This document shows positions 35,578 through 59,934 of a DNA stretch of 64,000 bases, piece by piece. Numbering within the stretch: the stretch's first letter is position 1; each line of letters opens with the position of its first letter. The DNA comes from Candidatus Woesebacteria bacterium (GTDB lineage Bacteria; Patescibacteriota; Microgenomatia; UBA8517): the NCBI GenBank assembly GCA_963716475.1, contig OY970314.1, positions 237,226-301,225 of the forward strand. The letters are read 5' to 3'. The notes under the pieces are model-generated. The model made no database searches and was not told where the DNA came from. It was given only the letters and a program-made list of their open reading frames with translations. A program made the translations under genes and the position numbers.

Positions 35578-38500
35578 GCGTTTGCGACGCGCTTTTATCC
35601 CAGTCGAAATTTCCCGACCACCTGACGGATTCCTTAGACATTTTTCTCCTCAAACCCGGATTTTCGAGAAGCCGCAGGATATTTCTTGTAAATTCGTCAA
35701 CGTCTCCGTATGAAACAAGAAATCCGCTGTGCGGATTATGAACAGCATCTCTTAGGCCCGCGACGTTACTGGCAATTACGGGAGTTCCGCAGGCATTTGC
35801 TTCAATTGTGGTAATTCCCCAACCTTCAATAAGCGACGGATTAACAAACACCCAGGCTTTTTGGTAGAGATTAACTTTCTCTTTTTCGCTAACTTTTCCT
35901 GTAAAAGTAATCTTGTGATCAAGGTGGAGTTTTTTGGTAAGTTTCATAAGGTTTCTCTTTTCGTCGCCGTCGCCTGCAATTACAAATTCAACCGTCGGCA
36001 TTCTTCTTAATATCTTTTTGGCACTTTTAATGAATATAGGAATACTTTTTTGCGGACTGAGCCTGCCTAGGTATAAAACCATGGGACTGACTGATTTCCT
36101 GCCGGGTTTATATATATTTGAGTCAACGCCGTTGTAAACCACATAAGGCTCGTTTTGTGAGATGTTGTGCTCCAAAATATCGGCTTTAGATGACGGTGAC
36201 ACAGTCATTACCTGCGTGTTTCTGTATACCGCCGGCATAGCATATTTTTCAAGAATCATTCCGATCCATGAGAGCGGCGGCTTTAGCCTGATGCGGAAAA
36301 CGTCCTGATGAACATGGTGAATTAAAAGGAATATTTTTTCTTTCGCATAAAGAGGCGTGAAAAAAGGAATTCCGTTTTCCGAATCTATAATTAAATCAAA
36401 ACGGCCTCTGAATTTGAATACATAATATAGAAATGCCCAGATAAATACTGTATAGAATCCTCCGCGGCGGATTATATTTATTCCGTCAATCTGTTCGTTT
36501 CTGGGTGACTTGTGGTCGTCCCCGCAGAATAGTGTGACTTCATGACCCTGCCTTACCCAGCGTTTGGCCAATTCGTGAACATAGACTTCCGCCCCGCCGC
36601 TCCAGACGTGTTTTGTATCGCGCCAGTTGAAGACTAAAATATTGAGTTTATTTTTATTGATAGCCGTAAGAGGCGCCGGCGCCGGTGTAAAAAGTCCCAG
36701 TAGGTCTAGCGTATTTCTGGAAACAGATTGCAGTTTTCGGTAGTTAATATGAACGGAAAGCATCGCAGCAAAGTAAGCAATTCCTCCGATAAACATGACA
36801 TCCACAATTTCGGAAATATTTGCATGGAAGACAAACATTCCTATTATTTGAAGCAATGAAAACATAAATCCAAAATACGGCAACATATGTTCGCCTTTGG
36901 ATTGGTGGTAAAGAATTATGCTAAGGGCTGATGTTTGGAATACCATGGCCAGTGAATAAAGAGGCAGAAAAGGTGTAACCGAGAGAATTTTGGGACCAAA
37001 AAGTATTGGCGCAGTAAACTTTCCAAATACTCCGATACCTATAAACGCAATAAGCGATGATATGACTGTCGCTGTCAGAAGTTTATAAAAAGTAGATTCG
37101 GACTTTTCCCCTTTACCCTCATGCCTGCTAATTAGCGGGATTATAAAGGGTGTAAACTGCGACCCGAAGAAATAAATCATTTTTCCCGTCAGTGAAAGGA
37201 GCGTATAGCGGCCCGCGTCTGCCGGGCTCAGGAAAAGTTTTGCAAGAATTACGTCGAATGTTAAAAATGCTATAACCGACAGATTATTAACGAATGTCGA
37301 AGTGAAAAATCTCTTTGGGAACGTTTCAGGTACGGCCAGCTGAACGCCCTCTTCCCTACTCTTTATGTGACTGGCGAAATACCAGCCTACTATGAAAGAA
37401 ATGAGCAGTGATGCCGGAATTGCCAGATAAACCAAATCATGTAATCCTATTTCTACAAAGAAAATTGAAAGTGATAGCTTAGTTAATGCGACAATTACCC
37501 CCATGAACCCGAAAACAATAAAAAGAAGATTCCCGTTGATGAATCCGGAATCAACCGCATTGGCGAGGCCGATGACCCAAATGGGAACAAAAATTATAAA
37601 AGGAACAATAGTATCGGATTTGAATACGTGTTGAAGAACGGGAGTTAGTAGCAGCCAGACTGTTGCCAGAACGATAGAAACTTTAATACCGTCTTTTCTG
37701 GTTTTTGCCCAAAATCTTTTGGCGGGTGTATCGTTCTTGCCGAGAAGGAAAGCGCTCTTATGAGTAACGGAGTTTGATAAGGCGCTAAAAGGAACCGTTG
37801 CCAGGTATAGGAAGCTTCCAACGAGACCCACCATTCCGAAATCTTCAAGGCTAAGTTTGCGGCCAAGATAGGCGTTATATAAAAAATTTAAAGCATTCTC
37901 AAACATCGTCGCCCCGATCAGAAATGCCCCTGAGAAATATTCTGATTTCACCAGAGTCTTTATTCTTGCGATTCCGGGTATTCTGAGATTTTTAATAAAA
38001 TTGAACTCAAAACTTTTTGCTACTTCTTCTTTAACTTTTACCCTGTCCAGTCCATGGATTGTCTTTTCCCAAAAATGAGGTTTGACGAGCAACTGGTAGA
38101 ATGCAACAAACGCCCCGATACTAGTTAGGAGCCAGTAAAACGGAACCAGGAAAACATATTTTATTATGCTCCACTCTTCTCTCTTGGCTGCGCCGATCAT
38201 GTAGTAGTAGAGGTAAAGAAAATTGCCGAAAACTGCAGAAAACACGGCCATATAAAATATCGAAGGCGGATATAAAGCCTCGATCTGGGGACCGACAAAT
38301 TTATAAAGCAGAAAGTAAGCTGCGGTCATAGCCCACAGAAAAGGATTTATCAGCATAAAACCTACTCTAAGACCCGAAACCAGCTGGAAGATTAAAGAGT
38401 GCACCCGTTTTTCCTTGGCGAAGCTTAGGGGATTTCGCATCTGGACAAAATATGTTTGCATGTAGCCCTTGAGCCACCTACTCCTTTGGCGTATCCAGTT

Positions 38501-40183: not shown

Positions 40184-40320
40184 CATATTTTTGCTGACCC
40201 CATATCCTAAGTGAAGGAATCCCCCTCTCGTTATGGGGTTATGAGAACTTGTTGGCAATTATGCAATAAAATGCTGAATAATTGCTGAAATATATAGCTA
40301 AGATTTTATAAGAATGACGG

Positions 40321-42823: not shown

Positions 42824-44764
<1,941 letters not shown>

Positions 44765-45603: not shown

Positions 45604-47349
45604 TTGTTTATCATGCCCACTGCCAAACCTATTCCAATTACGGAGGATAACGGAACCGAAACTCTAGCTGACGTTTTGGTAAAACTCGGAGTTCTTGATG
45701 CGACGCGTGCCAAACAGATAAAACTTGCGGAGATTCAAAGCGGATCGACTCAAGAGGATATTCTCAGACAGGGTAATATGGTGCCTGAGGGAAAATTGGT
45801 CCAGGCAAAAGCTCAACTTTATAATATTCAGTTTATAGATCTGACTGCAATCCCCATAGCTCCGGCTGCCCTTTCGGCACTTCCCGCAGAAGTAGCGGAG
45901 CGTTTCAAAGTTTTTCCTGTAGGAATCGACAGAAAAGACAAAAGCTTAATTCTGGCGATGGCAGACCCCCTGGACCTCTCCGCAATAGAGTTTATCGAGC
46001 AAAAAACAGGTTTTCATATCAGACCACGTGCGGCTCTTGCATCACAGATAGAAGATTTTGTTCAGAACCGCTACACGTCTTCTCTTACCCAGGAGGTATC
46101 GGCGGCGCTTAAGGAAGTCGAGCCCGAGAAGGAAAAAATGGCGGCTCTTCAGAATTCCACAGGGGGGTTCATACGCGAGGAAAAAATTGCCCAGATTGTG
46201 TCGCAAATATTGGAATTTGCCATTAAGAGCAGGGCCAGCGACGTTCATATAGAACCTCAGGAAAAATCCACCAGAGTCCGCTATCGAATCGATGGAATTT
46301 TGCAGGAAAAGCTTTCAATCCCAAGGGAACTCCATGATTCTTTAATTTCGAGAATAAAGATATTAAGCGGAATGAAAATTGATGAGAAAAGAATCCCCCA
46401 GGACGGCAGATTTAATTTTAAAGGCAGTGAGGAGGAGGTCGATCTTCGTATTTCATCTCTTCCGACAACCTGGGGAGAAAAAATTGTCATGAGGCTTCTC
46501 AAAAAATCAGGCGGTGTACCCGACCTTCCCGAACTGGGACTTAGGGGCCGGGGTTTAAAGAATTTACAGGATGCAATCCTCCGGCCTCACGGAATAATTC
46601 TTATCTGCGGACCGACGGGATCCGGTAAAACAACAACACTTTATTCGGTTATATCCAAGCTGAATACTACAAAGGTCAATATTGTTACTTTGGAAGACCC
46701 TATCGAGTATAAAATACCCGGTGTAAATCAGGTGCAGATTAACCCTGCGGTAGGACTGACTTTTGCATCCGGCTTGAGGTCATTCCTTCGTCAGGACCCG
46801 AATATTATTCTGGTCGGGGAAATTAGGGATCGCGAAACTGCCGATTTGGCCGTTCAGGCTTCACTTACGGGGCATTTGGTATTTTCAACTTTGCATACGA
46901 ATGATGCTTCGGGCGCCCTCCCCCGCCTTCTTGATATGGGTGCCGAGCCGTATCTTCTGGCATCGTCAATTACCTGTATTGTGGCTCAGCGTGTGGTTAG
47001 GGAAGTTCACCAAGCCTGCAAAGAGGCCTACTCACCCGATCCTAAAGTTTTGTCTGATATTCAGAAGGAACTGGGTAATCTTTGGCACCCGACGGGGGAA
47101 GTCAAATTTTATAAGGGTAAGGGCGATCCCGATTGCGCCAACTCGGGTTATTACGGCAGGATTGGTATTTTTGAAGTTATTCCCGCTTCGGAAATGATCG
47201 GAAAACTGATTTTGGAAAGGGCTTCCTCGACCGATATAGAGAAAATGGCAAGACAAGAGGGAATGATATCTCTCAAACAGGACGGGTACTTGAAAGTTAC
47301 CGAAGGAATTACTACAGTAGAAGAGGTACTAAGGGTAGCACAGGAATAA
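45604..47349 (+). CDS. pilB: type IV pilus assembly ATPase PilB (GspE family)
   Basis: N-terminal GSPII_E_N domain; Walker A GPTGSGKTTTLYS; Asp box, Walker B and His box. Confidence 0.9.
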   Translation: MFIMPTAKPIPITEDNGTETLADVLVKLGVLDATRAKQIKLAEIQSGSTQEDILRQGNMVPEGKLVQAKAQLYNIQFIDLTAIPIAPAALSALPAEVAERFKVFPVGIDRKDKSLILAMADPLDLSAIEFIEQKTGFHIRPRAALASQIEDFVQNRYTSSLTQEVSAALKEVEPEKEKMAALQNSTGGFIREEKIAQIVSQILEFAIKSRASDVHIEPQEKSTRVRYRIDGILQEKLSIPRELHDSLISRIKILSGMKIDEKRIPQDGRFNFKGSEEEVDLRISSLPTTWGEKIVMRLLKKSGGVPDLPELGLRGRGLKNLQDAILRPHGIILICGPTGSGKTTTLYSVISKLNTTKVNIVTLEDPIEYKIPGVNQVQINPAVGLTFASGLRSFLRQDPNIILVGEIRDRETADLAVQASLTGHLVFSTLHTNDASGALPRLLDMGAEPYLLASSITCIVAQRVVREVHQACKEAYSPDPKVLSDIQKELGNLWHPTGEVKFYKGKGDPDCANSGYYGRIGIFEVIPASEMIGKLILERASSTDIEKMARQEGMISLKQDGYLKVTEGITTVEEVLRVAQE

Positions 47350-47350
47350 C

Positions 47351-48409
47351 ATGAACGTTAAACAATTACTGCAATCCGTGATAGATGCTGAGGCAAGCGA
47401 TTTACATCTTGTAACGGGTATTCCGCCGACTCTGCGTAAAGACGGGGAGCTTATGCCGATTCCCTCTACCGGTGTTCTTACTCCGGATAATATCGGGGAT
47501 CTTCTTAAGGAGATATTGACCAGCGAACAAATCGAGAGACTGGCCGTTAATAAAGAATTGGATTTTTCTCTGTCATTTTCCGAAAAAGGAAGGTTCAGAG
47601 TCAACGCTTATACGCAGAAAGGCTCACTGGCCGCTGCTTTCAGGTTAATTCCTTTAGTAATTCCTTCAATTGAAAATTTGGGACTTCCCTCGATCTTGCA
47701 TTCATTTACCAGTTTGCGTCAGGGTTTTGTTCTGGTAACCGGTCCTACCGGACACGGAAAGTCTACAACACTGGCAGCGATGATTCAGGAAATTAATCAG
47801 ACCCGCCCGGTTCATATTGTGACAATCGAAGATCCGGTCGAGTTTGTTTTTAACCCGGTAAAGGCAATTATTTCCCAAAGAGAAATGCGAAGTGACACTC
47901 ATTCGTGGGAAATTGCTCTCCGCTCGGCTCTTAGGGAGGACCCCGACGTTGTATTTATAGGTGAAATGAGAGATTACGAAACCATTGCGGCGGCTCTGAC
48001 TGTTGCCGAAACCGGGCATCTGGTTTTTGCAACCCTGCATACCAATAATGCGGCGCAGTCAATCGACAGAATTGTGGATGTTTTTCCCGAGGAGCAGCAG
48101 CAGCAGATACGTTTACAACTGAGTAATGTCATCGAGGCAGTCTTTTCTCAAAGACTTATCCAAAGTGCCACCAAAGGCAGAGTGGTCACATATGAAGTAA
48201 TGTTGGGAAGTAGCGCCATCCGGACCACCATCCGCGAGGGCAAGACTCATCAGATTGAGAGCATTATTGAAACTTCCCACGAGGTTGGTATGAGTACTCT
48301 GGAAAGGTCTCTTGCCGATTTGGTCAAAAGAGGCGTGGTTACGCTTGAGGTGGCAGAAAGTTGGTCCCTTCGTCCGGAAGAACTGACACGTCTGATCCGT
48401 ACCACTTAA
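47351..48409 (+). CDS. pilT: twitching-motility/retraction ATPase PilT
   Basis: GPTGHGKSTTLAAMI Walker A; PilT-like length (352 aa) and C-terminal AIRNLIRE-like block (AIRTTIREGK). Confidence 0.85.
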   Translation: MNVKQLLQSVIDAEASDLHLVTGIPPTLRKDGELMPIPSTGVLTPDNIGDLLKEILTSEQIERLAVNKELDFSLSFSEKGRFRVNAYTQKGSLAAAFRLIPLVIPSIENLGLPSILHSFTSLRQGFVLVTGPTGHGKSTTLAAMIQEINQTRPVHIVTIEDPVEFVFNPVKAIISQREMRSDTHSWEIALRSALREDPDVVFIGEMRDYETIAAALTVAETGHLVFATLHTNNAAQSIDRIVDVFPEEQQQQIRLQLSNVIEAVFSQRLIQSATKGRVVTYEVMLGSSAIRTTIREGKTHQIESIIETSHEVGMSTLERSLADLVKRGVVTLEVAESWSLRPEELTRLIRTT

Positions 48410-48435
48410 TATGGTAAGTAAAGGAAACTTCAGTA

Positions 48436-49644
48436 ATGAAAAGGTTTAATTACAAAGCCAAAGACAAGTTAGGGAATCTTGTTACGGGGGAAGTAGAGGC
48501 ATTCACTCCAAATGCGGCTGCAAGGCTGGTTAAGGGCAGAGGTCTTTATGTTATTTCCATAACGCCTAAAATGGACTCCCCCTTTGCCGTTATAAGAAGA
48601 TACAGGGACAGGGTTACCGTTGGTGATGTTGCAACTTTTACACGCCAACTTTCAACGATGATCAACGCGGGTCTCCCCATTACGGAGGCGATTTTAATTT
48701 TGAGATCACAGTCGAAAGGATCGATGCAAAAAATTGTCGCCCAGATTCTTGCGGATATTGAGGCGGGAGATTCTTTTTCCGACTCACTAAGTAAGCACCC
48801 TAAAGTATTCTCCCGTACGTATATTGCCCTCGTCCGGTCGGGGGAGGTCGGCGGAGTAATGGATGCGGTACTTCTCCGGTTGGCCGATAATATGGAGAAA
48901 CAGGAAGAATTCGGCAGCCGCGTGAGAGGGGCAATGATTTACCCGGCAATCATTATTGTAGGAATGGTAGTAGTCAGTTTCGTGATGATGATTTTTGTTA
49001 TCCCTAAGTTAACTTCTCTTTATACGGATTTTGGTGCCACACTCCCCGTCCCGACACAGATACTTATGGGAGTTTCTAGTTTCTTTGTCCGTTTTTGGTA
49101 CATAATGATCCTCCTCGTGGGTGGGGTGCTTTACGCTTACAGAATATATGTTTCAACACCCAAAGGGCGCAGGAATATGGACGCCTTTATATTCAAAATT
49201 CCCGTATATGGTGAGCTGCAGCGTCAGATTATTTTAACGGAATTGACACGTACTCTTTCTCTCATGGTCGGAGCAGGCGTTCCCATTCTTGAGGCTCTGA
49301 CTATTACTTCCGAGGTTGTGACCAATACTATAATTTCAGAAGCCTTGCGGGATGCGGCAACACAGGTTGAAAGAGGATTTCCTATAGCCTTTTCGTTTTC
49401 GCGTCATCCCGAGGCCTTCCCGTATTTATTAAGCCAGATGATAGCAGTGGGAGAAGAAACGGGGAAAATGGATGAAGTTTTGACTAAAATCAGCCACATT
49501 TTCGAAGTGGAAAGCGATGAAAAAGTCAAAGGTCTAACTGCGGCGATTGAACCGCTTGTGATGATAGTTTTGGGTATCGGGGTCGGATTTTTGGTTATTG
49601 CCGTAATACTTCCGATTTATAATTTGACCAGTCAAATTCAATAA
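48436..49644 (+). CDS. pilC: type IV pilus platform protein PilC (GspF family)
   Basis: Two GspF repeats with 3 TM; typical cytoplasmic-domain motifs. Confidence 0.85.
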   Translation: MKRFNYKAKDKLGNLVTGEVEAFTPNAAARLVKGRGLYVISITPKMDSPFAVIRRYRDRVTVGDVATFTRQLSTMINAGLPITEAILILRSQSKGSMQKIVAQILADIEAGDSFSDSLSKHPKVFSRTYIALVRSGEVGGVMDAVLLRLADNMEKQEEFGSRVRGAMIYPAIIIVGMVVVSFVMMIFVIPKLTSLYTDFGATLPVPTQILMGVSSFFVRFWYIMILLVGGVLYAYRIYVSTPKGRRNMDAFIFKIPVYGELQRQIILTELTRTLSLMVGAGVPILEALTITSEVVTNTIISEALRDAATQVERGFPIAFSFSRHPEAFPYLLSQMIAVGEETGKMDEVLTKISHIFEVESDEKVKGLTAAIEPLVMIVLGIGVGFLVIAVILPIYNLTSQIQ

Positions 49645-49702
49645 AATTAGCTTCGGAATAGTACTTGACAAGCAAATTTAGATAGTTAATACTGAATATG
49701 TA

Positions 49703-50287
49703 ATGAAAAGAACACTTGCCCAAGGCTTCACGCTGATTGAACTCCTGATCGTTATCGCAGTCCTCGGAATTTTGGCGGTTGCCGTTCTTTCTGCAATTAA
49801 CCCGATCGAACAGATTGACAGAAGCAGGGATACGGGAAGCCGGTCCGATGCCGAACAGCTTATAGGAGCTGTTGACAGGTTTTATGCTACTCAGGGTTAT
49901 TATCCCTGGAGATCAAGTCCGACTCTCGGTGCAGACGCATATGCCTTTAAGAGGATTACGGCTTTGACTGATTGGCAGGACAATACTGGTGTAAATGTGT
50001 TGGATAAGCTTTCGGGTGTTGGCGTCGGTGCGGCCGGCGAGGTAAAGTTGTCTTTTGTTCAGAGAATAATTGGAGCGGGATATAATTATATGTTTGTTTA
50101 TAACAGAGGAACCTCGGGTGATAGTACTTATGTATGTTTCAGCGGAAAGTCTAAGGCTTTTCAGAAAGAGGCTACGGATCGTTGTGCAGGTACCAATGGA
50201 GCTATACCGGATGATTTAGATAGAGCTTCTGTGTGTAATGTAACTGTGGATGGCGTTGCCGGCAAGAGTATGACGTGTCTTCCTTAG
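49703..50287 (+). CDS. type IV major pilin candidate (PilA-like)
   Basis: Class III signal and N-methylation motif AQGFTLIELLIVIAVLGILAVAVLSAI; first pilin, right after pilC; followed by a T-rich tract. Confidence 0.8.
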   Translation: MKRTLAQGFTLIELLIVIAVLGILAVAVLSAINPIEQIDRSRDTGSRSDAEQLIGAVDRFYATQGYYPWRSSPTLGADAYAFKRITALTDWQDNTGVNVLDKLSGVGVGAAGEVKLSFVQRIIGAGYNYMFVYNRGTSGDSTYVCFSGKSKAFQKEATDRCAGTNGAIPDDLDRASVCNVTVDGVAGKSMTCLP

Positions 50288-51008
50288 TGTCTTTTTTTTT
50301 ATTTTTCTTCTAGGACTTGTTTTTGGTTCGTTTATTTCGGCACTGACGTGGCGCTACCCCCTTGGCATCTCGGTTAATAAAGGAAGAAGTATTTGTCCGA
50401 ACTGTAAGAGTCAAATTTCCTGGAAAGATAATATTCCCCTGCTCTCCTTTATTCTTCTCGGAGGCAGATGCCGGAATTGCAAAAAGCCGATCTCATGGCG
50501 TTATCCTGCGATTGAGCTTGCGACCGGAATCGGTTTTATGCTAATAGGTTATCAAGTTTTGTGGTTAGTAGTCTTTTGTATCCTGGAAGCAATATTTATT
50601 ATTGATCTGGAGCATAGAATTATTCCCGACACATTTGTATTTACAGGAATTCTTTTACTTAGCTTATTCTTTATGTTTAGCGGCTATACGCTACTCCTGC
50701 CCGCTCTTTTGGGTGGTTTTCTTGCGGCAACATTCCTGGTTCTTATTCACTTATTTACCAAAGGGCGCGGTATGGGCCTCGGGGATGTTAAATTTGCCGT
50801 TTTGGGAGGAGTCTTGGTCGGACTGAAACTAACCCCGGTGTGGCTATTTTTGGCTTTCTTGACAGGCGCGGCGGTAGGAAGCATACTGATTTTGGGTAAG
50901 CGCGCACACCTTAAAAGCCAGATAGCTTTTGGACCTTTTTTGGTAGCCGCTATCCCTTTAGCTTTATTTTATGGAGAAAAAATACTTCTCTGGCTTAAGT
51001 TTTATTGA
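50287..51008 (+). CDS. pilD: prepilin peptidase PilD (A24 family); N-terminus lacks an in-frame canonical start (possible frameshift or slippage at T9 tract)
   Basis: Reading frame ..FFFIFLLGLVFGSFISALTWRYP..CPNCKSQISW..CRNCKKPISWRYP (Zn-finger CxxC..CxxC) continues into the track ORF 50538..51008 (A24 TM core with GMGLGDVKF); in this frame a TGA lies just upstream and no ATG/GTG/TTG occurs before the conserved N-terminus; a GTG overlapping the pilin stop is in the +1 frame before a T9 run. Confidence 0.65.
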
Positions 51009-51585
51009 GGTTATGGTCGCCGTAAGTGTTATTGCCATTTTGACCCTGCTTGTAATAAATACTTATCTCGGTCAGACTTTTAAAGGATATGATGCGAAAC
51101 GCAAGGGAGACCTCGATAGAATTAAAGTGGCCACGGAAGAGTACGAAAAGGACAATAATTGCTACCCTCCCGCCGCTCTTGTTAAATGTGAGAATGGAGG
51201 TGCCGGACTTAAACCTTACTTAAACACAATTCCCTGTGACCCGAAAACCCATGAATCGTATGCTTATGAACCGGATCCCGAGGGTTGCCCCATATGGTTT
51301 CGGGCTTATGCCAAATTGGAAAATCTGGGCGACAAGTCAGCAATACCGGGAATTGGCCCGGGCGGAGCCTATAATTATTATGTGTCAAGTCCGAACGCAC
51401 CCCTTCTTGGTGGATTTGCCAGTGAGGTCCCGACCTCTCATTGGGGTTGTTTTAGCGGAATCTGTAAGCCTTTAAAAGAGAATCCTCCGGGAAACCCTGT
51501 TTGCGGCCCTTCCAGTACGACATCCGATTGTTATAGTCTTAACCATTGTATTCCTGAGGGTGCTCAGGATTGGGAGTGTAAATGA
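50971..51585 (+). CDS. pilin-like protein (minor pilin/pseudopilin)
   Basis: N-terminus FSGLSFIEVMVAVSVIAILTLLV (Gly at -1, Glu at +5); Cys-rich C-terminal region; overlaps the pilD 3' end. Confidence 0.6.
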   Translation: MEKKYFSGLSFIEVMVAVSVIAILTLLVINTYLGQTFKGYDAKRKGDLDRIKVATEEYEKDNNCYPPAALVKCENGGAGLKPYLNTIPCDPKTHESYAYEPDPEGCPIWFRAYAKLENLGDKSAIPGIGPGGAYNYYVSSPNAPLLGGFASEVPTSHWGCFSGICKPLKENPPGNPVCGPSSTTSDCYSLNHCIPEGAQDWECK

Positions 51586-52163
51586 AGAAATTTTCCAAAA
51601 CCGAGCTGATTTCAATATTTGTCATTTTTTTTATTTTGATAGCTGTTTCTGTTCCTAATTTTGTTATAAGTATAAGGAGAGCCCGCGATCAGGTAAGGAG
51701 GGACGATATGGGGACATTGGTTCATGCACTGGATCAGTATATGACCGATTTTAAAACGTTTCCGTCTGCTTCTCCTGACGGACGCATGATGGATTGTCTC
51801 AAGCCCGGAGATAAACCGGTTAAAGATAATAAAGGAAATTGGACGTTTAGCCCGATCCCCTGCGACTGGGGGAAAGATTCTTTTGCCAACCTTATAAACG
51901 GTAATATTTATATATCTGTGCTTCCCCGCGACCCGGATTATCAAAAAGGAGCAAAGTATTTGTATTTTAGTGACGGAGACAGATATCAAATCTATGCCGC
52001 AATGGAGGGGTCGGATGAAGCGGAAGTTGATCCAAAAATAGTTGCCAGGGGTCTTTTGTGCGGAACCAGAGTTTGCAATATTGGCCGCTCTTATAATGTT
52101 CCTACTGATATTTCTATCGAGGAATATGATAAATTATTAATAGTACCCAATGTTAAAAAATAA
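51582..52163 (+). CDS. atypical pilin-like protein lacking the conserved Gly before the hydrophobic segment
   Basis: MKKFSKTELISIFVIFFILIAVSV... then RRARDQVRRDDMGTLVHALDQYMTDF (pilin-like alpha1 pattern) and conserved YP..LPRDP block shared with neighbouring pilins. Confidence 0.5.
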   Translation: MKKFSKTELISIFVIFFILIAVSVPNFVISIRRARDQVRRDDMGTLVHALDQYMTDFKTFPSASPDGRMMDCLKPGDKPVKDNKGNWTFSPIPCDWGKDSFANLINGNIYISVLPRDPDYQKGAKYLYFSDGDRYQIYAAMEGSDEAEVDPKIVARGLLCGTRVCNIGRSYNVPTDISIEEYDKLLIVPNVKK

Positions 52164-52710
52164 TCGGAAATTATCTAAAGGTTTTACTCTAATCGAGATT
52201 TTGGTGGTAATGGTAATTTTGGGAATTTTGGTTACCATCGGTCTCGCTTCGTTTGTGTCTGCACAGGCAAGAAGCCGTGATGTCAGGCGTAAAAGTGACC
52301 TTAAGCAAATTGCAACGTCTCTGGATCTTTACTATTCCGATTATGAGGTCTACCCTACGGGTTCGGTTGACGGAAAAATCAAGGGTTGCCCATCCGGTAC
52401 GGGAGTGGCTTGTGTTTGGGGAGGAACTCCGTCGGAATTTAAGGATGGGAAAACTACTTATATGAAAATAGTTCCGGCTGATCCTTTACTGGGGTATAAC
52501 TACTATTATCGGACTATTACCGTTAACTCTTCGGTGGTCGGTTTTCAACTTTATGCACATTTGGAAAACACCAAGGACATCAATTGTCTACCCGATGCAA
52601 CGGGTGTAGCCAACTGCAGTAACCCTGTAATTCCCGCCGGTGTAACATGCGGCGGATCTTCAAAATGTAATTTTTCTTTAACAAGTTCTAACGTAACACC
52701 GACTCAGTAG
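52150..52710 (+). CDS. type IV pilin-like protein
   Basis: KGFTLIEILVVMVILGIL...RSRDVRRKSDLKQIATSLDLYYSDYEVYP...VPADP. Confidence 0.7.
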   Translation: MLKNNRKLSKGFTLIEILVVMVILGILVTIGLASFVSAQARSRDVRRKSDLKQIATSLDLYYSDYEVYPTGSVDGKIKGCPSGTGVACVWGGTPSEFKDGKTTYMKIVPADPLLGYNYYYRTITVNSSVVGFQLYAHLENTKDINCLPDATGVANCSNPVIPAGVTCGGSSKCNFSLTSSNVTPTQ

Positions 52711-52751
52711 TGGTCTTAGAAAACTTTTCGTAGTATCATTTATACAGGAAT

Positions 52752-53252
52752 ATGTCTGCCCGATTTATAAAACTTGGCTTCACACTAATCGAACTTCTGG
52801 TGGTTATTTCTATAATCGGGATTTTGGCAACTCTTGTTGTTGCAAACTTAAATTCCGCAAGATCTCGTGCCCGCGACGCTGCGAGAAAGTCGGATCTTGG
52901 GAATATTTCCACAGCTCTTAGAATTTATTATAACGATAGAAACGTTTATCCGGCCAAAGACGCCTCATATCAGATTGTAGGCTGCAGTTCATACACTACC
53001 CCAGCTACTTGTGCCTGGGGGACCGAATGGTCAGTAGGCTCCGATCCCAATAAGATTACATATATGGCAACGGTTCCGAAAGACCCTCTCCCTTCACAGT
53101 CATACAGGTATGAGCCCGGTGCGACGGGTGATACATTTATCCTGACGGCTTGTTTGGAAAACGGCAGTGACGCTCAAGGCGTAACCACAGTCAGTACAGC
53201 CTACGATACTTTCTGTTCATCGTCCCATTGGATGTTCCAGTTAAAGCAATGA
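52752..53252 (+). CDS. type IV pilin-like protein
   Basis: LGFTLIELLVVISIIGILA...RSRARDAARKSDLGNISTALRIYYNDRNVYP...VPKDP. Confidence 0.7.
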   Translation: MSARFIKLGFTLIELLVVISIIGILATLVVANLNSARSRARDAARKSDLGNISTALRIYYNDRNVYPAKDASYQIVGCSSYTTPATCAWGTEWSVGSDPNKITYMATVPKDPLPSQSYRYEPGATGDTFILTACLENGSDAQGVTTVSTAYDTFCSSSHWMFQLKQ

Positions 53253-53740
53253 AAATTATAAAAAACGGCTTCACACTGATTGAACTTTTGGTAGTTATTT
53301 CTATAATCGGGATTTTGGCTGCAATGGCCACCTTATCCTTCACCTCGGCTCAGAGACAGGCGAGGGACGTCACCAGAAAATCTGATTTAGCGCAATACCG
53401 CACTGCATTGGAAATGTTTGCCAATAAAAATAACGGTTTGTATCCAACTTCTTCTGCGACCTCCGTGTCACGCATCGATCCTAAAAATCTTTGTACTACA
53501 CTGGAACTTGGCACGAACTGTCCTGCCGATCCGAAGACAAGTGACTCTAATTATTATTATAGCTATATAACTGATGTTGCAGCCGCCCCGCTTTTCTCTG
53601 CGCAAGCGACACAGTATGTTCTGTGGGCAAAACTCGAAAACGTTACAACATCACCCACCTACTGGGTACTTTGCTCGGGCGGTAAAAGCGGGGTCCTAGC
53701 TACCGGTGTCACTCCGTCAACCGGAGCGTGTCCTATCTGA
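53228..53740 (+). CDS. type IV pilin-like protein
   Basis: NGFTLIELLVVISIIGILAAMA...RQARDVTRKSDLAQYRTALEMF; probable start MKIIKNGF at about 53249. Confidence 0.7.
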   Translation: MDVPVKAMKIIKNGFTLIELLVVISIIGILAAMATLSFTSAQRQARDVTRKSDLAQYRTALEMFANKNNGLYPTSSATSVSRIDPKNLCTTLELGTNCPADPKTSDSNYYYSYITDVAAAPLFSAQATQYVLWAKLENVTTSPTYWVLCSGGKSGVLATGVTPSTGACPI

Positions 53741-54213
53741 TGAAATTACAAATCCCAAATTCCAAAATACAAACTCTGGCTCGGGGTTTCACTTTGATCG
53801 AACTTCTGGTGGTTATTTCCATTATTGGAATACTTCTGGGGCTTTCGGTTTTTGGCCTGCAGGGGGCAAGGTTGTCTGCCAGGGATGCCCGACGTAAGTC
53901 TGATTTGGAAGCTATTCGGAGCGGACTTGAAATGTATAAGGCGGATTGTAATAGCTACCCTCTTACTGCTCAAGTAGCCGGTGGGACGGCGCTTGTCGGC
54001 GCTGCGGGACTGGCCGGATGTACCGGAAATACTTATATTTCACTGATACCGATGGATCCAGTTTCTCCGGCCCGATCCTATGCGTACGTATCCGCCGGCA
54101 CGACTTATACTTTGTGTGCTGCGTTGGAACAGGCACCATCCCCCGCAATGGCACCGAACCCCGCCTGTGGTAGCTGTACGGTTGGATGTAATTATCGGGT
54201 TATAAATCCATGA
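53728..54213 (+). CDS. type IV pilin-like protein
   Basis: RGFTLIELLVVISIIGILLGL...ARDARRKSDLEAIRSGLEMYKADCNSYP...IPMDP. Confidence 0.7.
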   Translation: MSYLMKLQIPNSKIQTLARGFTLIELLVVISIIGILLGLSVFGLQGARLSARDARRKSDLEAIRSGLEMYKADCNSYPLTAQVAGGTALVGAAGLAGCTGNTYISLIPMDPVSPARSYAYVSAGTTYTLCAALEQAPSPAMAPNPACGSCTVGCNYRVINP

Positions 54214-54220
54214 CCATGAA

Positions 54221-54775
54221 ATGGAAACATCAAATTACAAAAAACAAATACCAAATAAAAAAGGTGGTTATGGGTACACCCCAATAAGAACCATTCGAAA
54301 GAACCCTGTCAGTGTGTATGCCTACACCCTGATTGAAATTCTGGTAACCCTGACAATCATAGGACTTCTTTTTGGCTTCGGATACGCCAATTTTAGGGAT
54401 TTTTCGAGACGGCAGGTACTCAGCGATGCCGTAAAGACGATACAAGGAGACTTGAGGTTTACCCAGGCTAATGCAATAACAGGCCAGAAGCCGACAGGTT
54501 GTGATTTAACCAAAACGCTTGACAGTTATAGCTTCAAAGTTGTTTCTGAAACTGAATACACAATTTTAGCAAACTGCGGAAGTACGACAGTTACAGTAAA
54601 GGATGTAAATATAGCTCCGGGTATTACTATTGCGCCTATTCCCATAACTCTGAATTTTAAAATTTTAGGTCAAGGGACAGACGTGGGCAGTTCCGATTGG
54701 ACACTGACTCTGGTGCAAGACGGAACGGCAAACACGGGAACCGTGACTGTGACGTCGGGAGGAGAAATAAAATGA
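54221..54775 (+). CDS. pseudopilin-like protein (non-canonical AYTLIE leader)
   Basis: Long basic leader then AYTLIEILVTLTIIGLLFGFGYANF; beta-rich C-terminus. Confidence 0.5.
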   Translation: METSNYKKQIPNKKGGYGYTPIRTIRKNPVSVYAYTLIEILVTLTIIGLLFGFGYANFRDFSRRQVLSDAVKTIQGDLRFTQANAITGQKPTGCDLTKTLDSYSFKVVSETEYTILANCGSTTVTVKDVNIAPGITIAPIPITLNFKILGQGTDVGSSDWTLTLVQDGTANTGTVTVTSGGEIK

Positions 54776-55215
54776 AATCACAATCCGGGCAGTCGCTTTT
54801 TGAGCTTGTGGTTGCAATTGCGATTAGCGCTCTGATGATTGTTGCCATGGTTTCCCTGGCGGTAAACTCCATCCAAAATGCAAATTTTGCCAAAAATAAG
54901 GCCCTGGCCTCAACTTATGCCCAGCAGGCGATGGAGTGGCTCAGAGGACAAAGGGATAGCGGAATAGATACCTTTATCGATAATGTAACAATGGCTACCG
55001 GTTCGAGTAGATGTTTAAACGATTTAGCTTGGACAGTTGCTCCCTGCGGTTCGGGTGCAACCATCACGGGGACCCCTTTTATACGTCAAGTAACTTTTAG
55101 CGTAACGACCCAAAACACTAAAAAAGTTGTTAAGGCAGATGTTACGGTTTCCTGGAAGGACTCGCAAGGAACCCATCAAGTAGAAAGTGCCACGAATTTG
55201 GCAGATTTGAGATAG
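54772..55215 (+). CDS. pseudopilin-like protein
   Basis: MKSQSGQSLFELVVAIAISALMIVAMVSLAVN; the track ORF 54697 start is an upstream extension. Confidence 0.55.
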   Translation: MKSQSGQSLFELVVAIAISALMIVAMVSLAVNSIQNANFAKNKALASTYAQQAMEWLRGQRDSGIDTFIDNVTMATGSSRCLNDLAWTVAPCGSGATITGTPFIRQVTFSVTTQNTKKVVKADVTVSWKDSQGTHQVESATNLADLR

Positions 55216-55224
55216 TGTTTAAAA

Positions 55225-55740
55225 ATGACAAATAGTAAATTACGAATCACAAAAGTTGCGGGAAAGGGTATGAGTCTGGTCGAAATTCTTGTTGTGATTA
55301 CAATTTTTGCGGTACTCGGTATTTTGATTACACAATCCGTTATCCTGACTTTGCAGGGTTCTCAAAAGAGTGAATCGATTGTGCGTGCAAGGGAAAACCT
55401 GGATTATTCTCTGAATATAATCGAACGGCAACTCAGAAATGCCGACTCTGTCATATCATGTCCAGACCCCTATACAATTAATTATCTGGACCAAAGCGGT
55501 GTTTCCACTTCATTTTCGTGTCAACAAATGGGGTCAAACGATTCTTATATTGCGTCAGGTTCTGCCAGATTGACGACAGACACGGTTAAAATAACAGGCT
55601 GTACTTTTACCTGTACTCCGGCGACTATGACCAATCCTGCATTGGTTAAAGTAGACCTTATTGTGCAGGAAGATTTTAAATCGGGGGCGCAAAGCGCCAG
55701 TATATCGGCCTCAACGCAGATTTATCTCAGGAATTATTAA
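55225..55740 (+). CDS. pseudopilin-like protein
   Basis: GKGMSLVEILVVITIFAVLGILITQSVILTL. Confidence 0.55.
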   Translation: MTNSKLRITKVAGKGMSLVEILVVITIFAVLGILITQSVILTLQGSQKSESIVRARENLDYSLNIIERQLRNADSVISCPDPYTINYLDQSGVSTSFSCQQMGSNDSYIASGSARLTTDTVKITGCTFTCTPATMTNPALVKVDLIVQEDFKSGAQSASISASTQIYLRNY

Positions 55741-55754
55741 CATTTTCCGGTATT

Positions 55755-57581
55755 TTAGACAACAATTACATTCGTAAATCTACGGTCTTTGTTAAGGAAT
55801 CTTTCAAGATTTTTCTCGTCTTTGCGTGAAAGATTTTCAACGACCATTCTCCAAGTAAAAATTCCATTATGGGTCCGGTTTTCCTGGGGATTAATATTTC
55901 CTCCAAGGGCATCTATTTTGGAAGAAACCAAGGATGTGATGCCGTGTGCATCCGGTCCCTCGATCAAGATTGATGTCAGCCCAAGATGCTCTTTTGTTAT
56001 TTCTGCGTCGTCTAAGTGTTTTTCCAGATCAGCCGTGTCCATCACACCCGCACCGATTTTGTAATAGAGATCTTCGACCAAATTTTTAGTTCCTAATATA
56101 AACAATAAATGCTCGAGATTACCCTTACATTTGTCAATTTTAGACAAATCGGCGAGATCGATTAGACCCCTTTTGGCAATAATATTTCCGATCGCCTCTT
56201 TGCCCTTGATTTTAAGAATCGATCTCTCCTCATCGGACAACATTTCGTCTATTATTTTTATTGTAGCCGGTAAACTATATTCTTTTGATTCTTTTTCCGG
56301 AGCAATTCTTGGTTCTCCCAACTCTATTCTTATACGGGCACCGTTTGGCAAAACCGTTGATATGGGAAATCTTTCACCGTCGATAAAAACATATTTGGCT
56401 CTTGCCCCCATTTGATGGCTGTTTGCAAAAGCAAAATCATAACCGGTAGCTTTTAACTTTAAGAACTTGGCCTCATCAGTCTCAGTGAACACCAGTTTAA
56501 GAGCATGCTTCGATAGATCCGTATCCCCTTTTCTTATGAGACTTACTACCCCCCATCTATTGAAGTCCTCTTTTTCACTGCTCGTGATTGCAATTTCCGT
56601 TGAACCTTGTTGAAAATCCAGAGTCAGTTGTATAGCGCTATAATCGTTGTCTCTTGGTTTGAAGTAAAAGTCGTCAAAACGTTTGTCATCCTCAATTTCT
56701 GCAAAATTTTGTCTGACTGCACCGAGCATTTTATAGACATTGTTTCTTGTATCGGCACTTTCGGCGCCTGGGACTATCACCCTGAAACTTATTAAATCAT
56801 TTATTTTATGGGGAAGATCTTTGCCCATTTTATTTTTTAATTTGGGTAAGCTGATCATTCTGGTTTCGACATTTGCGTCAATCGAGGCGTCTGCGGCGAT
56901 GAATTCCAGGGTTGATTTCAACCAGGCTTTGAATTTTTCCTCAGTCCTGGGATCTGCATTGAGGGTACGTGAGTATTTTTCGAAGTCTTCGGGACAGGAA
57001 TATTCCATAGAAAGATCTTCAAGCTCTCTCATAACCTTCCACATTCCAAGAGATTCCGCCATTTTTGCATAGCTTTTTGTTTCATTGGCTTTTGCAATTT
57101 GCTTATCAACCGGCATAAAACCAAGAGTTCTCATGTTATGTAAACGGTCAGCAAGTTTAAGTACACCAACATTCGGGTCTATAAGGTTCTTACTGAAGAT
57201 TTTTCTTACTGTTTCCCTATCATTTTCAATTTTACTTACACCATTTTGTTTTTCTGATCGAAGTTGGGAAACGCCATCTACCAGGAATGCCACATTTGGT
57301 CCGAATTCGTTTTCGATATCATTTAGTGTTAGTGTCGTATCTTCGATAGTATCGTGAAGTAGTGCCGCTATTCTAAGATCGGGCGAACTGATACCCCATT
57401 CGCTGCTGATTATTTTTTCAACTGCCTTACAGTGCGTGATATATGGGGTGCCTTCTGCCCGGAGGCGTCCTTCGTGGGCCCTTTCGGCCATAGTGTAGGC
57501 AGTAGAATAAATACCCGAATATTCGGGTATATTTTCCAAATGATCTTGGTTTGGGGCACCTCTTTCCATATTGAATTGCAA
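55755..57581 (-). CDS. bifunctional (p)ppGpp synthetase/hydrolase Rel/SpoT homolog
   Basis: HD hydrolase motif (LLHDTIEDT); synthetase block YFKPRDNDYSAIQLTLDF...TEIAITS; TGS-like KYVFIDGERFPISTVLPNGARIRI. Confidence 0.8.
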   Translation of the reverse strand: MQFNMERGAPNQDHLENIPEYSGIYSTAYTMAERAHEGRLRAEGTPYITHCKAVEKIISSEWGISSPDLRIAALLHDTIEDTTLTLNDIENEFGPNVAFLVDGVSQLRSEKQNGVSKIENDRETVRKIFSKNLIDPNVGVLKLADRLHNMRTLGFMPVDKQIAKANETKSYAKMAESLGMWKVMRELEDLSMEYSCPEDFEKYSRTLNADPRTEEKFKAWLKSTLEFIAADASIDANVETRMISLPKLKNKMGKDLPHKINDLISFRVIVPGAESADTRNNVYKMLGAVRQNFAEIEDDKRFDDFYFKPRDNDYSAIQLTLDFQQGSTEIAITSSEKEDFNRWGVVSLIRKGDTDLSKHALKLVFTETDEAKFLKLKATGYDFAFANSHQMGARAKYVFIDGERFPISTVLPNGARIRIELGEPRIAPEKESKEYSLPATIKIIDEMLSDEERSILKIKGKEAIGNIIAKRGLIDLADLSKIDKCKGNLEHLLFILGTKNLVEDLYYKIGAGVMDTADLEKHLDDAEITKEHLGLTSILIEGPDAHGITSLVSSKIDALGGNINPQENRTHNGIFTWRMVVENLSRKDEKNLERFLNKDRRFTNVIVV

Positions 57582-57613
57582 TTATACCACCCACTTGCTA
57601 AACTGGATTTACC

Positions 57614-58519
57614 ATGCAAAAAGATGACTCCGGCCAGGCTTTAGTACTGGTACTTCTTTCGCTTTCTGTTGTTCTAACTTTGATCTTATATATATTGTCC
57701 CGTTCGGTTACCGACGTTGCAGTTTCTTCAAGACAGGAAGAAGCCGTGCGGGCTTTTTCTGCAGCCGAGGCCGGGATCGAACGCTCGCTTGTGGTTGGTA
57801 CAGGATTTCCCGAGACGGGTATCGGAAATGCAAGCTACACAACTTCGGTAACAAGCTTTGCCTCGGGGAGTGGCGAGTTGTCTTTTCCATCCCCGGTTTC
57901 ATATGGAGATGTCGTAACGGTTTGGTTCGTTTCTCATGATAATAGTGGAAAGTTGGTGTGTAACCCTCCCCCGTTGCCTTGTTACTTTGGAACTCAAATG
58001 AAGGTATGTTGGGGTAATCCGGGTACCCCAAGAGATTCACTAACCACTCCTGCGGTTGAGTTGAGTGTGTATTATGAATCCCCTGCCAACAGTGGTTTTG
58101 CCAACCTAAATGTTGGGCGGGTTCTTGTAGATCCCAATTCAGGAAGGAGCGCGGGTAACGCTTTTATTATTTCGCCCGATTGGTCAGCGGGAACGTGTCA
58201 AATCGGGAATCAAACATACGCCTTTCAGAAGACAATAAACTTTTCCGACATGAAGATACCTGCAGGTTCCTATGGGGCCGTGAATGGTATGCAGCTAGCA
58301 CAAATAAGAATGCTCTATAACAGTGATGTTTCTCAGGCAGTTGGCGTTGGTGTTACCGGTAGTACTTTACCGTCTCAGGGGAAAGTAATTGATTCAAGTG
58401 GTTTTGCCGGCGATATTAATAACAGGAGTAACCGTAGGATTATAGTCTATCAGAGTTGGCCGGAATTTCCTTTTACTTCAAGTACAATTATCTCTCCTGT
58501 CGGAATTATAAAGAATTAA
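57614..58519 (+). CDS. PilX-N-like minor pilin/pilus-associated protein
   Basis: N-terminus DSGQALVLVLLSLSVVLTLILYILS resembles the PilX_N class (no Glu+5); beta-rich body. Confidence 0.45.
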   Translation: MQKDDSGQALVLVLLSLSVVLTLILYILSRSVTDVAVSSRQEEAVRAFSAAEAGIERSLVVGTGFPETGIGNASYTTSVTSFASGSGELSFPSPVSYGDVVTVWFVSHDNSGKLVCNPPPLPCYFGTQMKVCWGNPGTPRDSLTTPAVELSVYYESPANSGFANLNVGRVLVDPNSGRSAGNAFIISPDWSAGTCQIGNQTYAFQKTINFSDMKIPAGSYGAVNGMQLAQIRMLYNSDVSQAVGVGVTGSTLPSQGKVIDSSGFAGDINNRSNRRIIVYQSWPEFPFTSSTIISPVGIIKN

Positions 58520-59934
58520 GGCGCCACTTCCTGCCAGCTCATAGTGCGGGCCCCAAGTGAGCCGGGGAATAAAAGAACCTGGTCGGGGGCGAATTCAAAA
58601 AACTCTGCCGGTGTTGTAGAATTTGCCGCTTCAAGATCTCTTTGAAGACCCATACCTCTATAAGTTGCTATTGATCCGCGTACCCGAAGCTGAAGGTCGG
58701 AACTCGTGCTTTTTGTACCTGTTCGGTACTCTCCATCGGCGATAAATATTCCCTCAAGATTGGGGGGCGTATTTTCATTAACGACCGCCGGGTCAAACCC
58801 GACTGTCGGGCTCACTATAATATTCCCCTTTGTTCCGCTGCCGTTGTCTCCGGCAACCAGTAGGAAAAATCCGGCACCTTTGTTCAGATTAATATTTCCT
58901 GTTATGGTAACGTTAGAACCTTTAACGATTATAACCACCTTATTATTACCCAAAGACGTACCTCCGGGATTATTTATTATCAAATCGGATCCCCCGTTTG
59001 ACGCCGGATCATATTCCCACCAATAGATACCGGTTGCCGTATCTTTTTGTGCAGATCCGTTAAAAAGAGAAGCTACGTTTATTGAGGCCGATGAAGAGTT
59101 TATGGTTGTGCCTTCAGGTACTGCATTCAGGAAATAAGCCGAATTGTATGTCTTTGCAGCATTATAGCCCGATTGGGCCAACCAGCCCGTTTCAGAAACA
59201 TTTGCCTGATTAAGGTTGGTATTGCCCTTATGTGCCGGGATACCCGGATATCCACCTCCACCCGTAAGGTCAAAATACTGACTTGATCCTGGGGGAGGAG
59301 GGGTGGGAGTTGGGGCCGGTGTGGGAGTGGCGCATGATGCGGTAGCCGGGCAGGATTTTGTCGTACAGCCACAACTGCCATTCACACCGCCGTCATTTAC
59401 TGTTCCGCCGCCGTAGCCACAACCCGACGGGCAAGGCTGATTGCTGCACCCCGCCTGTGCCGGAGTACAATCGTCAAAACAGGAAGAACAACCATTCCAA
59501 CCGTCGCGGACGCACTGTCCCGCTACAGAGTAACAACTACCGCTTGTCACACAAGACCCAGGAATACAACCACCGACCCATGTGCAGCTTTGAGCGACGG
59601 GATTACAATGGTAAAGACACGAATTCCCCGCCGTGGCATTTTGGCATGAGGCTTGATCTGTATAGGCGCTGCAAGGCAATCCTCCCAGCGAGGTATTGCA
59701 AACAGTACCGCAATTCCAACTACAAGTACCTAATCCGGCAGCGCAATTACCGCCCGCGTTATAACATACTGTAGAATGTGAGAGGCTACAATAACAACCG
59801 GACACATCTTGACCACAAAATATAGTTCCCTGGCAACCTGCATATACTTGTTTTGTTAAGCCGCCGGTACACGCGATAATAATTCCCGAAACAAAAATTA
59901 ATTTAAAAAGCCAATTACTGAAGAATTGTCTCAC
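58516..59934 (-). CDS. secreted Cys-rich protein with Pro/Thr linker and C-terminal beta-rich domain
   Basis: Signal peptide; about 45 Cys in the first ~200 aa; PTPAPTPTPPPP linker; Gly/Asn/Thr-rich C-terminal domain. Confidence 0.55.
   Translation of the reverse strand: MRQFFSNWLFKLIFVSGIIIACTGGLTKQVYAGCQGTIFCGQDVSGCYCSLSHSTVCYNAGGNCAAGLGTCSWNCGTVCNTSLGGLPCSAYTDQASCQNATAGNSCLYHCNPVAQSCTWVGGCIPGSCVTSGSCYSVAGQCVRDGWNGCSSCFDDCTPAQAGCSNQPCPSGCGYGGGTVNDGGVNGSCGCTTKSCPATASCATPTPAPTPTPPPPGSSQYFDLTGGGGYPGIPAHKGNTNLNQANVSETGWLAQSGYNAAKTYNSAYFLNAVPEGTTINSSSASINVASLFNGSAQKDTATGIYWWEYDPASNGGSDLIINNPGGTSLGNNKVVIIVKGSNVTITGNINLNKGAGFFLLVAGDNGSGTKGNIIVSPTVGFDPAVVNENTPPNLEGIFIADGEYRTGTKSTSSDLQLRVRGSIATYRGMGLQRDLEAANSTTPAEFFEFAPDQVLLFPGSLGARTMSWQEVAP

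Follow-up and report, generated by a model that had tools for sequence, protein, structure and literature searches.

A conserved type IV pilus gene cluster of Candidatus Woesebacteria and its pilin-like family without the Gly/Ala leader end

Type IV pili (T4P) are thought to be central to host attachment and DNA uptake in the ultrasmall Candidate Phyla Radiation (CPR, or Patescibacteria) bacteria. In these bacteria T4P genes are widespread, co-localised and secretin-less (PMC6744442), and the T4P of Saccharibacteria mediate host binding and twitching (PMC11623550). The closest described systems are T4P-1 and T4P-2 of Nanosynbacter lyticus TM7x (PMC11623550) and the T4P of Streptococcus sanguinis (PMC6916266). 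In TM7x, the head of PilX1 is beta-jelly-roll-like and the signal peptides of both PilX1 and PilX2 are non-canonical (PMC11623550). Here we describe a T4P-type gene cluster in a 64-kb stretch of a Candidatus Woesebacteria genome (contig OY970314.1, positions 237,226 to 301,225; the whole stretch is called the window). The cluster occupies positions 45604 to 58519 and contains eleven pilin-like genes, one of which, pilin3, represents a conserved family that departs from the rule that a prepilin leader ends in glycine or alanine.

Like the TM7x and S. sanguinis systems, the cluster encodes PilB, PilT, PilC and PilD together with one likely major pilin and many minor pilins; there is no secretin, the minor pilins resemble pseudopilins of the type II secretion system (T2SS), and a large tip candidate of the ‘PilX’ type has a beta-rich head. 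Unlike them, it belongs to Woesebacteria, another CPR class, its eleven pilin-like genes stand in a fixed order, PilMNO is displaced, a relA gene lies inside the operon and one conserved paralogue has neither Gly nor Ala at the leader end (position −1). Genes were mapped from a listing of open reading frames (ORFs) and from scans with Pfam and NCBIfam hidden Markov models (HMMs), and are numbered pilin1 to pilin7 and H-, I-, J- and K-like in Table 1. A preliminary description of this DNA had recognised a T4P locus with many pilin or pseudopilin genes, which is borne out by Pfam matches to pilB, pilT, pilC and pilD. It had also counted eight consecutive genes with class III signals after pilD; the array is real, but ORFs and HMMs give nine.

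Bacterial prepilin leaders are described as ending invariably with Gly or Ala (PMC10191384). All ORFs of the window and of 22 related loci (23 loci) were scanned for class III motifs with any residue allowed at −1. There were 210 matches to the canonical motif, with Gly in 182, Ala in 28 and nothing else at this position; a few of the 28 Ala matches fall inside the K-like protein and are spurious. Against this baseline, the unusual leader diversity claimed earlier shrank to one case. The leader strings that had been quoted were all found as written, but three of the four that were flagged are textbook features. The G↓QSLFE leader of the I-like pilin has both Gly−1 and Glu5 and is kept in five of six related loci, the gene call in L006 beginning inside the motif. 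The A↓YTLIE leader of the H-like pilin reads G↓YTLIE or G↓FTLIE in its orthologues from six loci, which indicates a lineage-specific change from Gly to Ala, a residue that is common at this site in the clade. The G↓QALVL leader of the K-like protein is typical of its homologues, 113 of 120 of which read G↓QAL.. with Leu, Met or Ile at +5; a missing Glu5 is the hallmark of the K cap subunit at the filament tip (PMC10790768, PMC10191384).

The remaining leader, KFSKTELISIF of pilin3, is a real and conserved exception. The segment of this protein that starts at +1, FSKTE-LISIFVIFFILIAVSVPNF, has about 20 hydrophobic residues and Glu at position 5. A protein on a 982,852-bp contig is 100% identical to pilin3. 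A protein collection search gave 121 homologues, mostly with 50–77% identity, and an alignment of about 120 homologue clusters has 13 invariant and 35 nearly invariant columns. The motif is found at the N-terminus in 108 clusters, and residues were counted in these. All 108 have Phe+1 and Lys/Arg+3, 107 have Glu+5 and 98 have Ser/Thr+2; Pro+22 is also kept. The −1 position, in contrast, is occupied by Pro (46), Lys (15), Ile (11), Arg (10), Leu (7), Phe (6), Ser (5), Asn (4), His (2) or Ala (2), and never by Gly. The leader is a three-residue MKx in 77 of the 108.

The rest of the protein is recognisably that of a pilin. The family profile matched PulG (5wda; 4e-7) with F4 aligned to mature residue F1, the NCBIfam GspG match to pilin3 begins at residue 4, and the predicted fold is a GspG-like lollipop pilin, modelled with confidence. 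At +3, pilin3 has Lys in place of the Leu of GspG, and it differs from GspG again in having no G↓F cleavage site. Two models of the N-methylation site, PF07963 and TIGR02532, match all nine other pilins that contain Glu5; neither matched pilin3 at E ≤ 0.1. When 1.8 billion cluster representatives were searched with a profile, the family grew to 101 proteins at E < 1e-30. Within the top 149 hits, 106 have [KR]+3-x-[ED]+5 followed by a hydrophobic helix, and 19 of these 106 carry Gly or Ala at −1, with leaders of 3–22 residues (median about 6–7). Those without Gly or Ala mostly have a three-residue leader, and nine representatives start at +1. We do not claim these nine (M-T-K-x-E) as ‘leaderless’ members, since G↓M-T-[KR]-x-E is the reading in their canonical relatives and the starts may be miscalled. 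The pattern across the family points to descent from canonical G↓F-x-K-x-E pilins, with loss of the cleavage determinant and retention of Glu5 and Pro22.

In published mutagenesis, the last Gly of the leader was ‘absolutely critical’ for processing, whereas Glu5 was needed for assembly and dispensable for cleavage (PMC4471445). Because −1 is strictly Gly or Ala in the other pilins and free in pilin3, and given these mutants, we think it somewhat more likely than not that pilin3 escapes cutting by PilD and works in its uncleaved form as a pilin-like subunit. Its strict Phe+1 and Ser/Thr+2 count against this reading, as they are what would be expected if PilD still recognised pilin3. So does the orthologue in L019, which carries Gly at −1 (MKG↓FSKQE) and is the sole such case among 17 genome loci.

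The alternative that survives best, although we regard it as doubtful, is that pilin3 is an ordinary minor pilin, cut before Phe+1 by PilD or another protease and incorporated along the fibre. The conserved Phe+1, Ser/Thr+2, Glu+5 and Pro+22 are together what a PilD substrate and filament subunit needs, the gene lies within the operon and is translationally coupled to it, its ATG overlapping the stop codon of pilin2 (ATGA), and some members of the wider family retain a canonical G↓F-x-K-x-E. However, a PilD that tolerated any residue at −1 would not leave the other pilins with Gly or Ala in 210 of 210 matches. The residue most often found at −1 in the pilin3 family is Pro, the three-residue leader falls short of the published range of 6–26 residues, the last Gly of which is reported to be critical (PMC4471445), and free variation at −1 implies that no constraint is imposed by a peptidase pocket.

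A mechanism for the whole cluster can be outlined from established T4P biology and from what T4P are known to do in Patescibacteria (PMC6744442, PMC11623550). PilD would remove the cytoplasmic leader of ten prepilins by cutting after Gly or Ala. The H-I-J-K set (genes at 54221, 54772, 55225 and 57614) would prime assembly on the PilC platform, leaving the Glu5-less K-like protein at the tip with its beta-sandwich head as a possible adhesin. PilB would then polymerise the major pilin, probably pilin1, with incorporation of five GspG-like minor pilins (pilin2 and pilin4–7), and PilT would retract the fibre. If pilin3 is uncleaved, its Glu5 could still dock on the N-terminal amine of the neighbouring subunit, while Lys/Arg+3 or the retained basic MKx might supply the positive charge that normally comes from the free amine of Phe1. 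Alternatively, the basic MKx or Lys+3 may anchor pilin3 to the membrane and so make it a basal or terminating subunit. Substitution of the amine by the Lys+3 charge is pure inference.

A broader version of the proposal is that pilin3 typifies a widespread Patescibacteria family (100 or more clusters at 50% identity, with E < 1e-30 and the signature [KR]+3-x-E+5) that is independent of the peptidase and enters or terminates the filament uncleaved, with Lys+3 replacing the amine as charge partner; we regard this as less likely than not. To our knowledge, a built-in uncleaved subunit with a basal, anchoring or length-control role is so far undescribed in type IV filaments of any kind. Our search of the literature for peptidase-independent or leaderless bacterial pilins found nothing relevant, an absence that is no proof of novelty, and no prior description of a conserved pilin-like paralogue without Gly or Ala was found in the literature searched. 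In archaea, ArlF and ArlG (FlaF/FlaG) are archaellin-like proteins with an unprocessed N-terminal helix that serve as membrane-anchored parts of the machine. The likeness of pilin3 to these proteins is conceptual only, in that pilin3 too would be a homologue of a filament subunit that escapes signal-peptidase processing and remains anchored in the membrane; the Glu5 and Pro22 kept in pilin3 argue for a filament-type contact rather than a stator role.

With regard to the cluster as a whole, the locus is genuine but typical of CPR T4P loci, and we are confident in classing the region as a conserved type IVa-like pilus cluster of the monoderm type from Candidatus Woesebacteria (Microgenomates, Patescibacteria/CPR). 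It is improbable that it instead encodes a non-retractile pseudopilus, that is, a T2SS-like or Com-like DNA-uptake machine. In favour of this, six of the paralogues are GspG-like by HMM, an H-I-J-K set is present just as T2SS and Com systems have one (PMC10790768), and the window has neither a secretin nor PilMNO. However, pilMNO genes lie beside the K gene in the relatives L004, L005 and L007, real pili, which bind hosts and drive twitching, are made by Patescibacteria whose loci are homologous (PMC11623550), and CPR bacteria have no outer membrane (PMC6744442), so that a T2SS has no obvious role. The resemblance to GspG/PulG (TIGR01710, PF08334; 5wda, 4lw9) is also partial: the window proteins score 34–58 bits against an equivalog cut-off of 88.85, and their heads are larger and have extra Cys pairs.

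Several observations weigh against our assignment. Every gene of the cluster is known here from sequence alone. The H-, I- and J-like pilins all score below the curated cut-offs for their families (for the H-like pilin, NCBIfam GspH 5.9e-7 and Pfam GspH 0.018), and the head of the K-like protein is a beta-sandwich or resembles a carbohydrate-binding module (CBM) rather than having the alpha-domain fold of GspK. The pilD gene is frameshifted as assembled; the peptidase may be poorly expressed, or the assembly may be at fault. Finally, a tblastn search with PilM, PilN and PilO from L004 showed that they are absent from the 64-kb window. They may be elsewhere in this genome, because they come after the K gene in L004, L005 and L007.

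Comparison with six loci fetched around homologues (L002–L007) showed that the pilin array is conserved gene by gene. The synteny check suggested earlier found the order gyrB-holB, pilB-T-C-pilin1-pilD-pilin2-pilin3-pilin4..7-H-I-J-K in L002–L006; in L007 the upstream part is rearranged and the order matches from pilD onward. In all-against-all comparisons, the best match of each window pilin was the gene at the same position in each of the six loci, the one exception being the K-like gene, for which the L006 locus contains no counterpart. Between same-position genes, identity was 36–59% for pilin1 and 40–77% for the other pilins (46–56% for pilin2 and 52–68% for pilin4). Paralogues within the window are approximately 20–60% identical, in short local alignments outside the leader. 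Same-position best matches at 36–77% identity mean that the paralogues are old rather than recent duplicates, and the array reads as a fixed, vertically inherited set of specialised subunits and not as a diversification cassette. The most divergent pilin between genomes is pilin1, as expected for an exposed major subunit, making it the likeliest major pilin.

These comparisons effectively refute the suggestion that the array arose by recent tandem duplication serving antigenic or phase diversification. The suggestion had drawn on the GFTLIELLVV leader and the YP...(V/I)P.DP block common to four adjacent genes, and the 5′ ends of pilin5 and pilin6 are indeed 89% identical in DNA over 64 nt. The block itself is confirmed by alignment; it is common to six paralogues, not four, and aligns with the generic GspG signature, YP...LPqDP in PulG (5wda). 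DNA repeats among the pilin genes do not extend past this 64-nt stretch, which codes for the leader and the beginning of the helix. Set against this suggestion, the same-position matches of the paralogues in the six genomes have 52–72% identity, while beyond the leader the paralogues of the window have only about 35–45% with one another.

Relatives come from genome records that bear the name Candidatus Woesebacteria, Microgenomates or Patescibacteria. Homologues of pilin3 with 51–63% identity were also found in four metagenome-assembled genome (MAG) records named ‘uncultured Gammaproteobacteria bacterium’ (L014, CAZYCE010000005.1; L015, CAZAXL010000007.1; L016, CAZSGY010000028.1; L023, CAZBTH010000002.1). 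Three of these four MAGs also hold other Woesebacteria-type genes of the locus, and the records are probably mislabelled taxonomically.

The weakest alternative, that the N-terminus of pilin3 is an artefact of a wrong start codon or of a decaying pseudogene, finds a hint in the lack of a Pfam or TIGR N-methyl match and is refuted by the confident fold prediction, by the invariant columns and non-Gly N-terminus kept across the homologue clusters, and by the in-frame TAA directly before the ATG, which leaves the N-terminus no room for extension and so excludes a mis-start. A mis-start had been named as what would overturn the observation. An alternative upstream start was likewise ruled out in the related loci: among the 17 genome loci, no upstream in-frame start places Gly or Ala at −1, Gly being present only in L019.

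The four genes that close the array follow the published H-I-J-K pattern, in which one operon encodes the set and the last subunit, without Glu5, caps the tip (PMC10790768, PMC10191384). As in GspH-I-J-K, PilH-I-J-K and ComGD-GF-GE-GG, they stand in H-I-J order and the last and largest lacks Glu5. The best family-specific NCBIfam matches follow gene order as GspH, PilV/GspI and GspJ, and then comes the PilX_N-like gene; the order H-I-J-K is kept in related loci. Unlike the established sets, that of the window falls under curated cut-offs: in the HMM classification, most pilins match N-methyl models, but the H, I and J family scores are too low. The J-like protein reaches 19.0 bits for its TIGR02532 domain (cut-off 16.3), whereas its GspJ match (0.0026) is below cut-off. 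The set differs further in that K is parted from J by the antisense relA gene. The protein encoded at 57614 is K-like by its position and its missing Glu5, and not a member of the GspK family, from which its head sets it apart.

Table 1. Features of the T4P cluster and its flank in the window
Feature	Position	Strand	Evidence and remarks
pilB, extension ATPase	45604..47349	+	Pfam T2SSE 1.8e-127 (425 bits), MshEN 2e-16; same position in L002–L006
pilT, retraction ATPase, 352 amino acids	47351..48409	+	T2SSE 1.2e-43 (149.6 bits); assigned by this general model and its position directly after pilB; 352-amino-acid orthologue at same position in L002–L006
pilC, platform protein	48436..49644	+	Pfam T2SSF 6e-62 (207.6 bits), two repeats
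pilin1 (MKRTLAQG↓FTLIE)	49703..50287	+	N_methyl 1.6e-7
pilD, prepilin peptidase/methylase	50275..51008	+	Peptidase_A24 1.2e-14; frame broken in T9 run
pilin2 (FSG↓LSFIE), GspG-like, Cys-rich C-terminal extension	50971..51585	+	TIGR01710 GspG 2.8e-7
pilin3, non-canonical pilin-like (MKK-FSKTE)	51582..52163	+	Lys at −1, Lys at +3, Glu at +5
pilin4 (SKG↓FTLIE), GspG-like minor pilin	52150..52710	+	N_methyl 1.6e-8, GspG 2e-14
pilin5 (KLG↓FTLIE), GspG-like minor pilin	52752..53252	+	N_methyl, T2SSG 1.2e-4, GspG 1e-15
pilin6 (MKIIKNG↓FTLIE)	53249..53740	+	N_methyl 1.7e-8; ORF open from 53228; independent L001 gene call of 163 amino acids
pilin7 (LARG↓FTLIE)	53740..54213	+	N_methyl 4e-7, T2SSG 1.5e-5; ORF open from 53728
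H-like minor pilin (VYA↓YTLIE)	54221..54775	+	33-amino-acid leader with inserted element; NCBIfam GspH 5.9e-7
Conserved 19-nt core of inserted element, ATAAGAACCATTCGAAAGA	54284..54302	+	exact in 5 fetched related loci
I-like minor pilin (MKSQSG↓QSLFE)	54772..55215	+	NCBIfam PilV 3.3e-5, GspI 7.9e-5; ORF open from 54697
J-like minor pilin (GKG↓MSLVE)	55225..55740	+	NCBIfam GspJ 0.0026; TIGR02532 19.0 bits
relA/spoT-type (p)ppGpp enzyme	55755..57581	−	HD_4 4e-26, RelA_SpoT, TGS
K-like cap minor pilin (DSG↓QALVL, no Glu5), beta-sandwich head	57614..58519	+	PilX_N 16 bits (cut-off 25.5)
Cys-rich secreted protein, 472 amino acids, convergent with K-like gene	58516..59934	−	clade-specific 257-amino-acid C-terminal domain

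The ORFs of pilin6, pilin7 and the I-like gene are open further upstream, and their true starts are likely to be the internal ATGs at 53249, 53740 and 54772, each of which overlaps the preceding stop codon. Open from 50280, the pilD frame runs for 243 codons, which specify both the Cys-box of the methylase (CPNC...CRNC) and the Peptidase_A24 domain. None of its codons before the 87th is ATG, GTG or TTG, and it was listed with 156 amino acids because its N-terminal 86 codons are without an in-frame start. The TTG start of pilD in L002, the closest relative, corresponds to the GTG at 50275 of the window. This GTG is in another frame, which reads through 12 codons before a stop; joining it to the frame of pilD takes a −1 shift, by one extra base. 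Adding a single T to the T9 run at 50292–50300 gives a 244-amino-acid PilD that is collinear with that of L002, the 20 residues up to GSF being identical in both. The run is T9 again in a second assembly, L001, which matches at 100% identity over 3.8 kb and may derive from the same sample. Slippage, transcriptional or ribosomal, an assembly error or real inactivation could each explain the break.

The 33-residue leader of the H-like pilin contains an insertion (window 54266–54337, + strand, core at 54284–54302). The inserted segment is 33–36 nt long and is flanked by a 12–15-nt direct repeat of the G-[FY]-T-L-I codons, giving the peptide G[FY]TLI-RTIRK[NS]......-[GA]↓[FY]TLIE. Its 19-nt core, ATAAGAACCATTCGRAAGA, is identical across genomes, synonymous sites included, with a chance expectation in the window of 0.04. 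It was located at L002 12157, L004 12590, L009 9148, L010 12566 and L015 11672, and also in five pilin-leader contexts on metagenome contigs (L027, L029, L031, L032 and L033). The insertion occurs once per locus and the pilin paralogue that hosts it differs between genomes. A search of Rfam with the element gave no match.

An antisense Rel/SpoT gene had been reported between the last pseudopilin and the PilX-like gene, and this was confirmed by HD_4, RelA_SpoT and TGS matches on the minus strand. A relA/spoT gene is found at the J/K junction in L002, L006, L008, L009, L020, L023 and L024 and is missing from it in L003–L005; in L007 a class-I lysyl-tRNA synthetase takes its place (L007 14080–15654). 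The relA/spoT gene at this site is a lineage-specific insertion. At the junction (window 55740–57614), insertion of an antisense housekeeping gene has recurred, some relatives having no insert, and the divergent start codons of relA and the K-like gene are 32 nt apart.

Downstream, the protein convergent with the K-like gene (58516–59934) could be a pilus-associated surface protein. It has no Pfam or PDB match, and its only homologues in the protein collection are 18 unnamed Woesebacteria clusters; its 257-residue domain lies in the downstream flank of the pilin array in 11 related loci, with 36–54% identity. Other genes of the window encode large surface proteins, glycosyltransferases, GyrA, GyrB and an H+-pyrophosphatase. 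Four giant proteins are all encoded on the minus strand (11739–16409, 21903–24695, 35552–40258 and 61160–63919): an envelope protein of 1556 amino acids with eight SpaA_2 prealbumin-like repeats and DUF11, one of 930 with Big_3_5, one of 919 with Big_2/SdrD_B/SpaA, and a protein of 1568 with fused GT2 and GT4 glycosyltransferase domains. The giant envelope proteins indicate a heavy investment of the genome in the cell surface. The GyrB of L004 (L004 1–3220) has 1086 amino acids and an intein (Intein_splicing); that of the window (42824–44752, 642 amino acids) has none.

Most features of this locus that were first flagged as unusual are therefore textbook, and the pilin3 family is the exception. 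The fixed set of eleven pilin-like subunits provides a defined parts list for work on the Woesebacteria pilus. Within it, the pilin3 family breaks, in a conserved manner, the Gly/Ala rule for the leader end that reviews have called invariable in bacteria, and it offers a natural test of what a prepilin peptidase requires and of whether an uncleaved pilin can contribute to filament assembly or regulate it.

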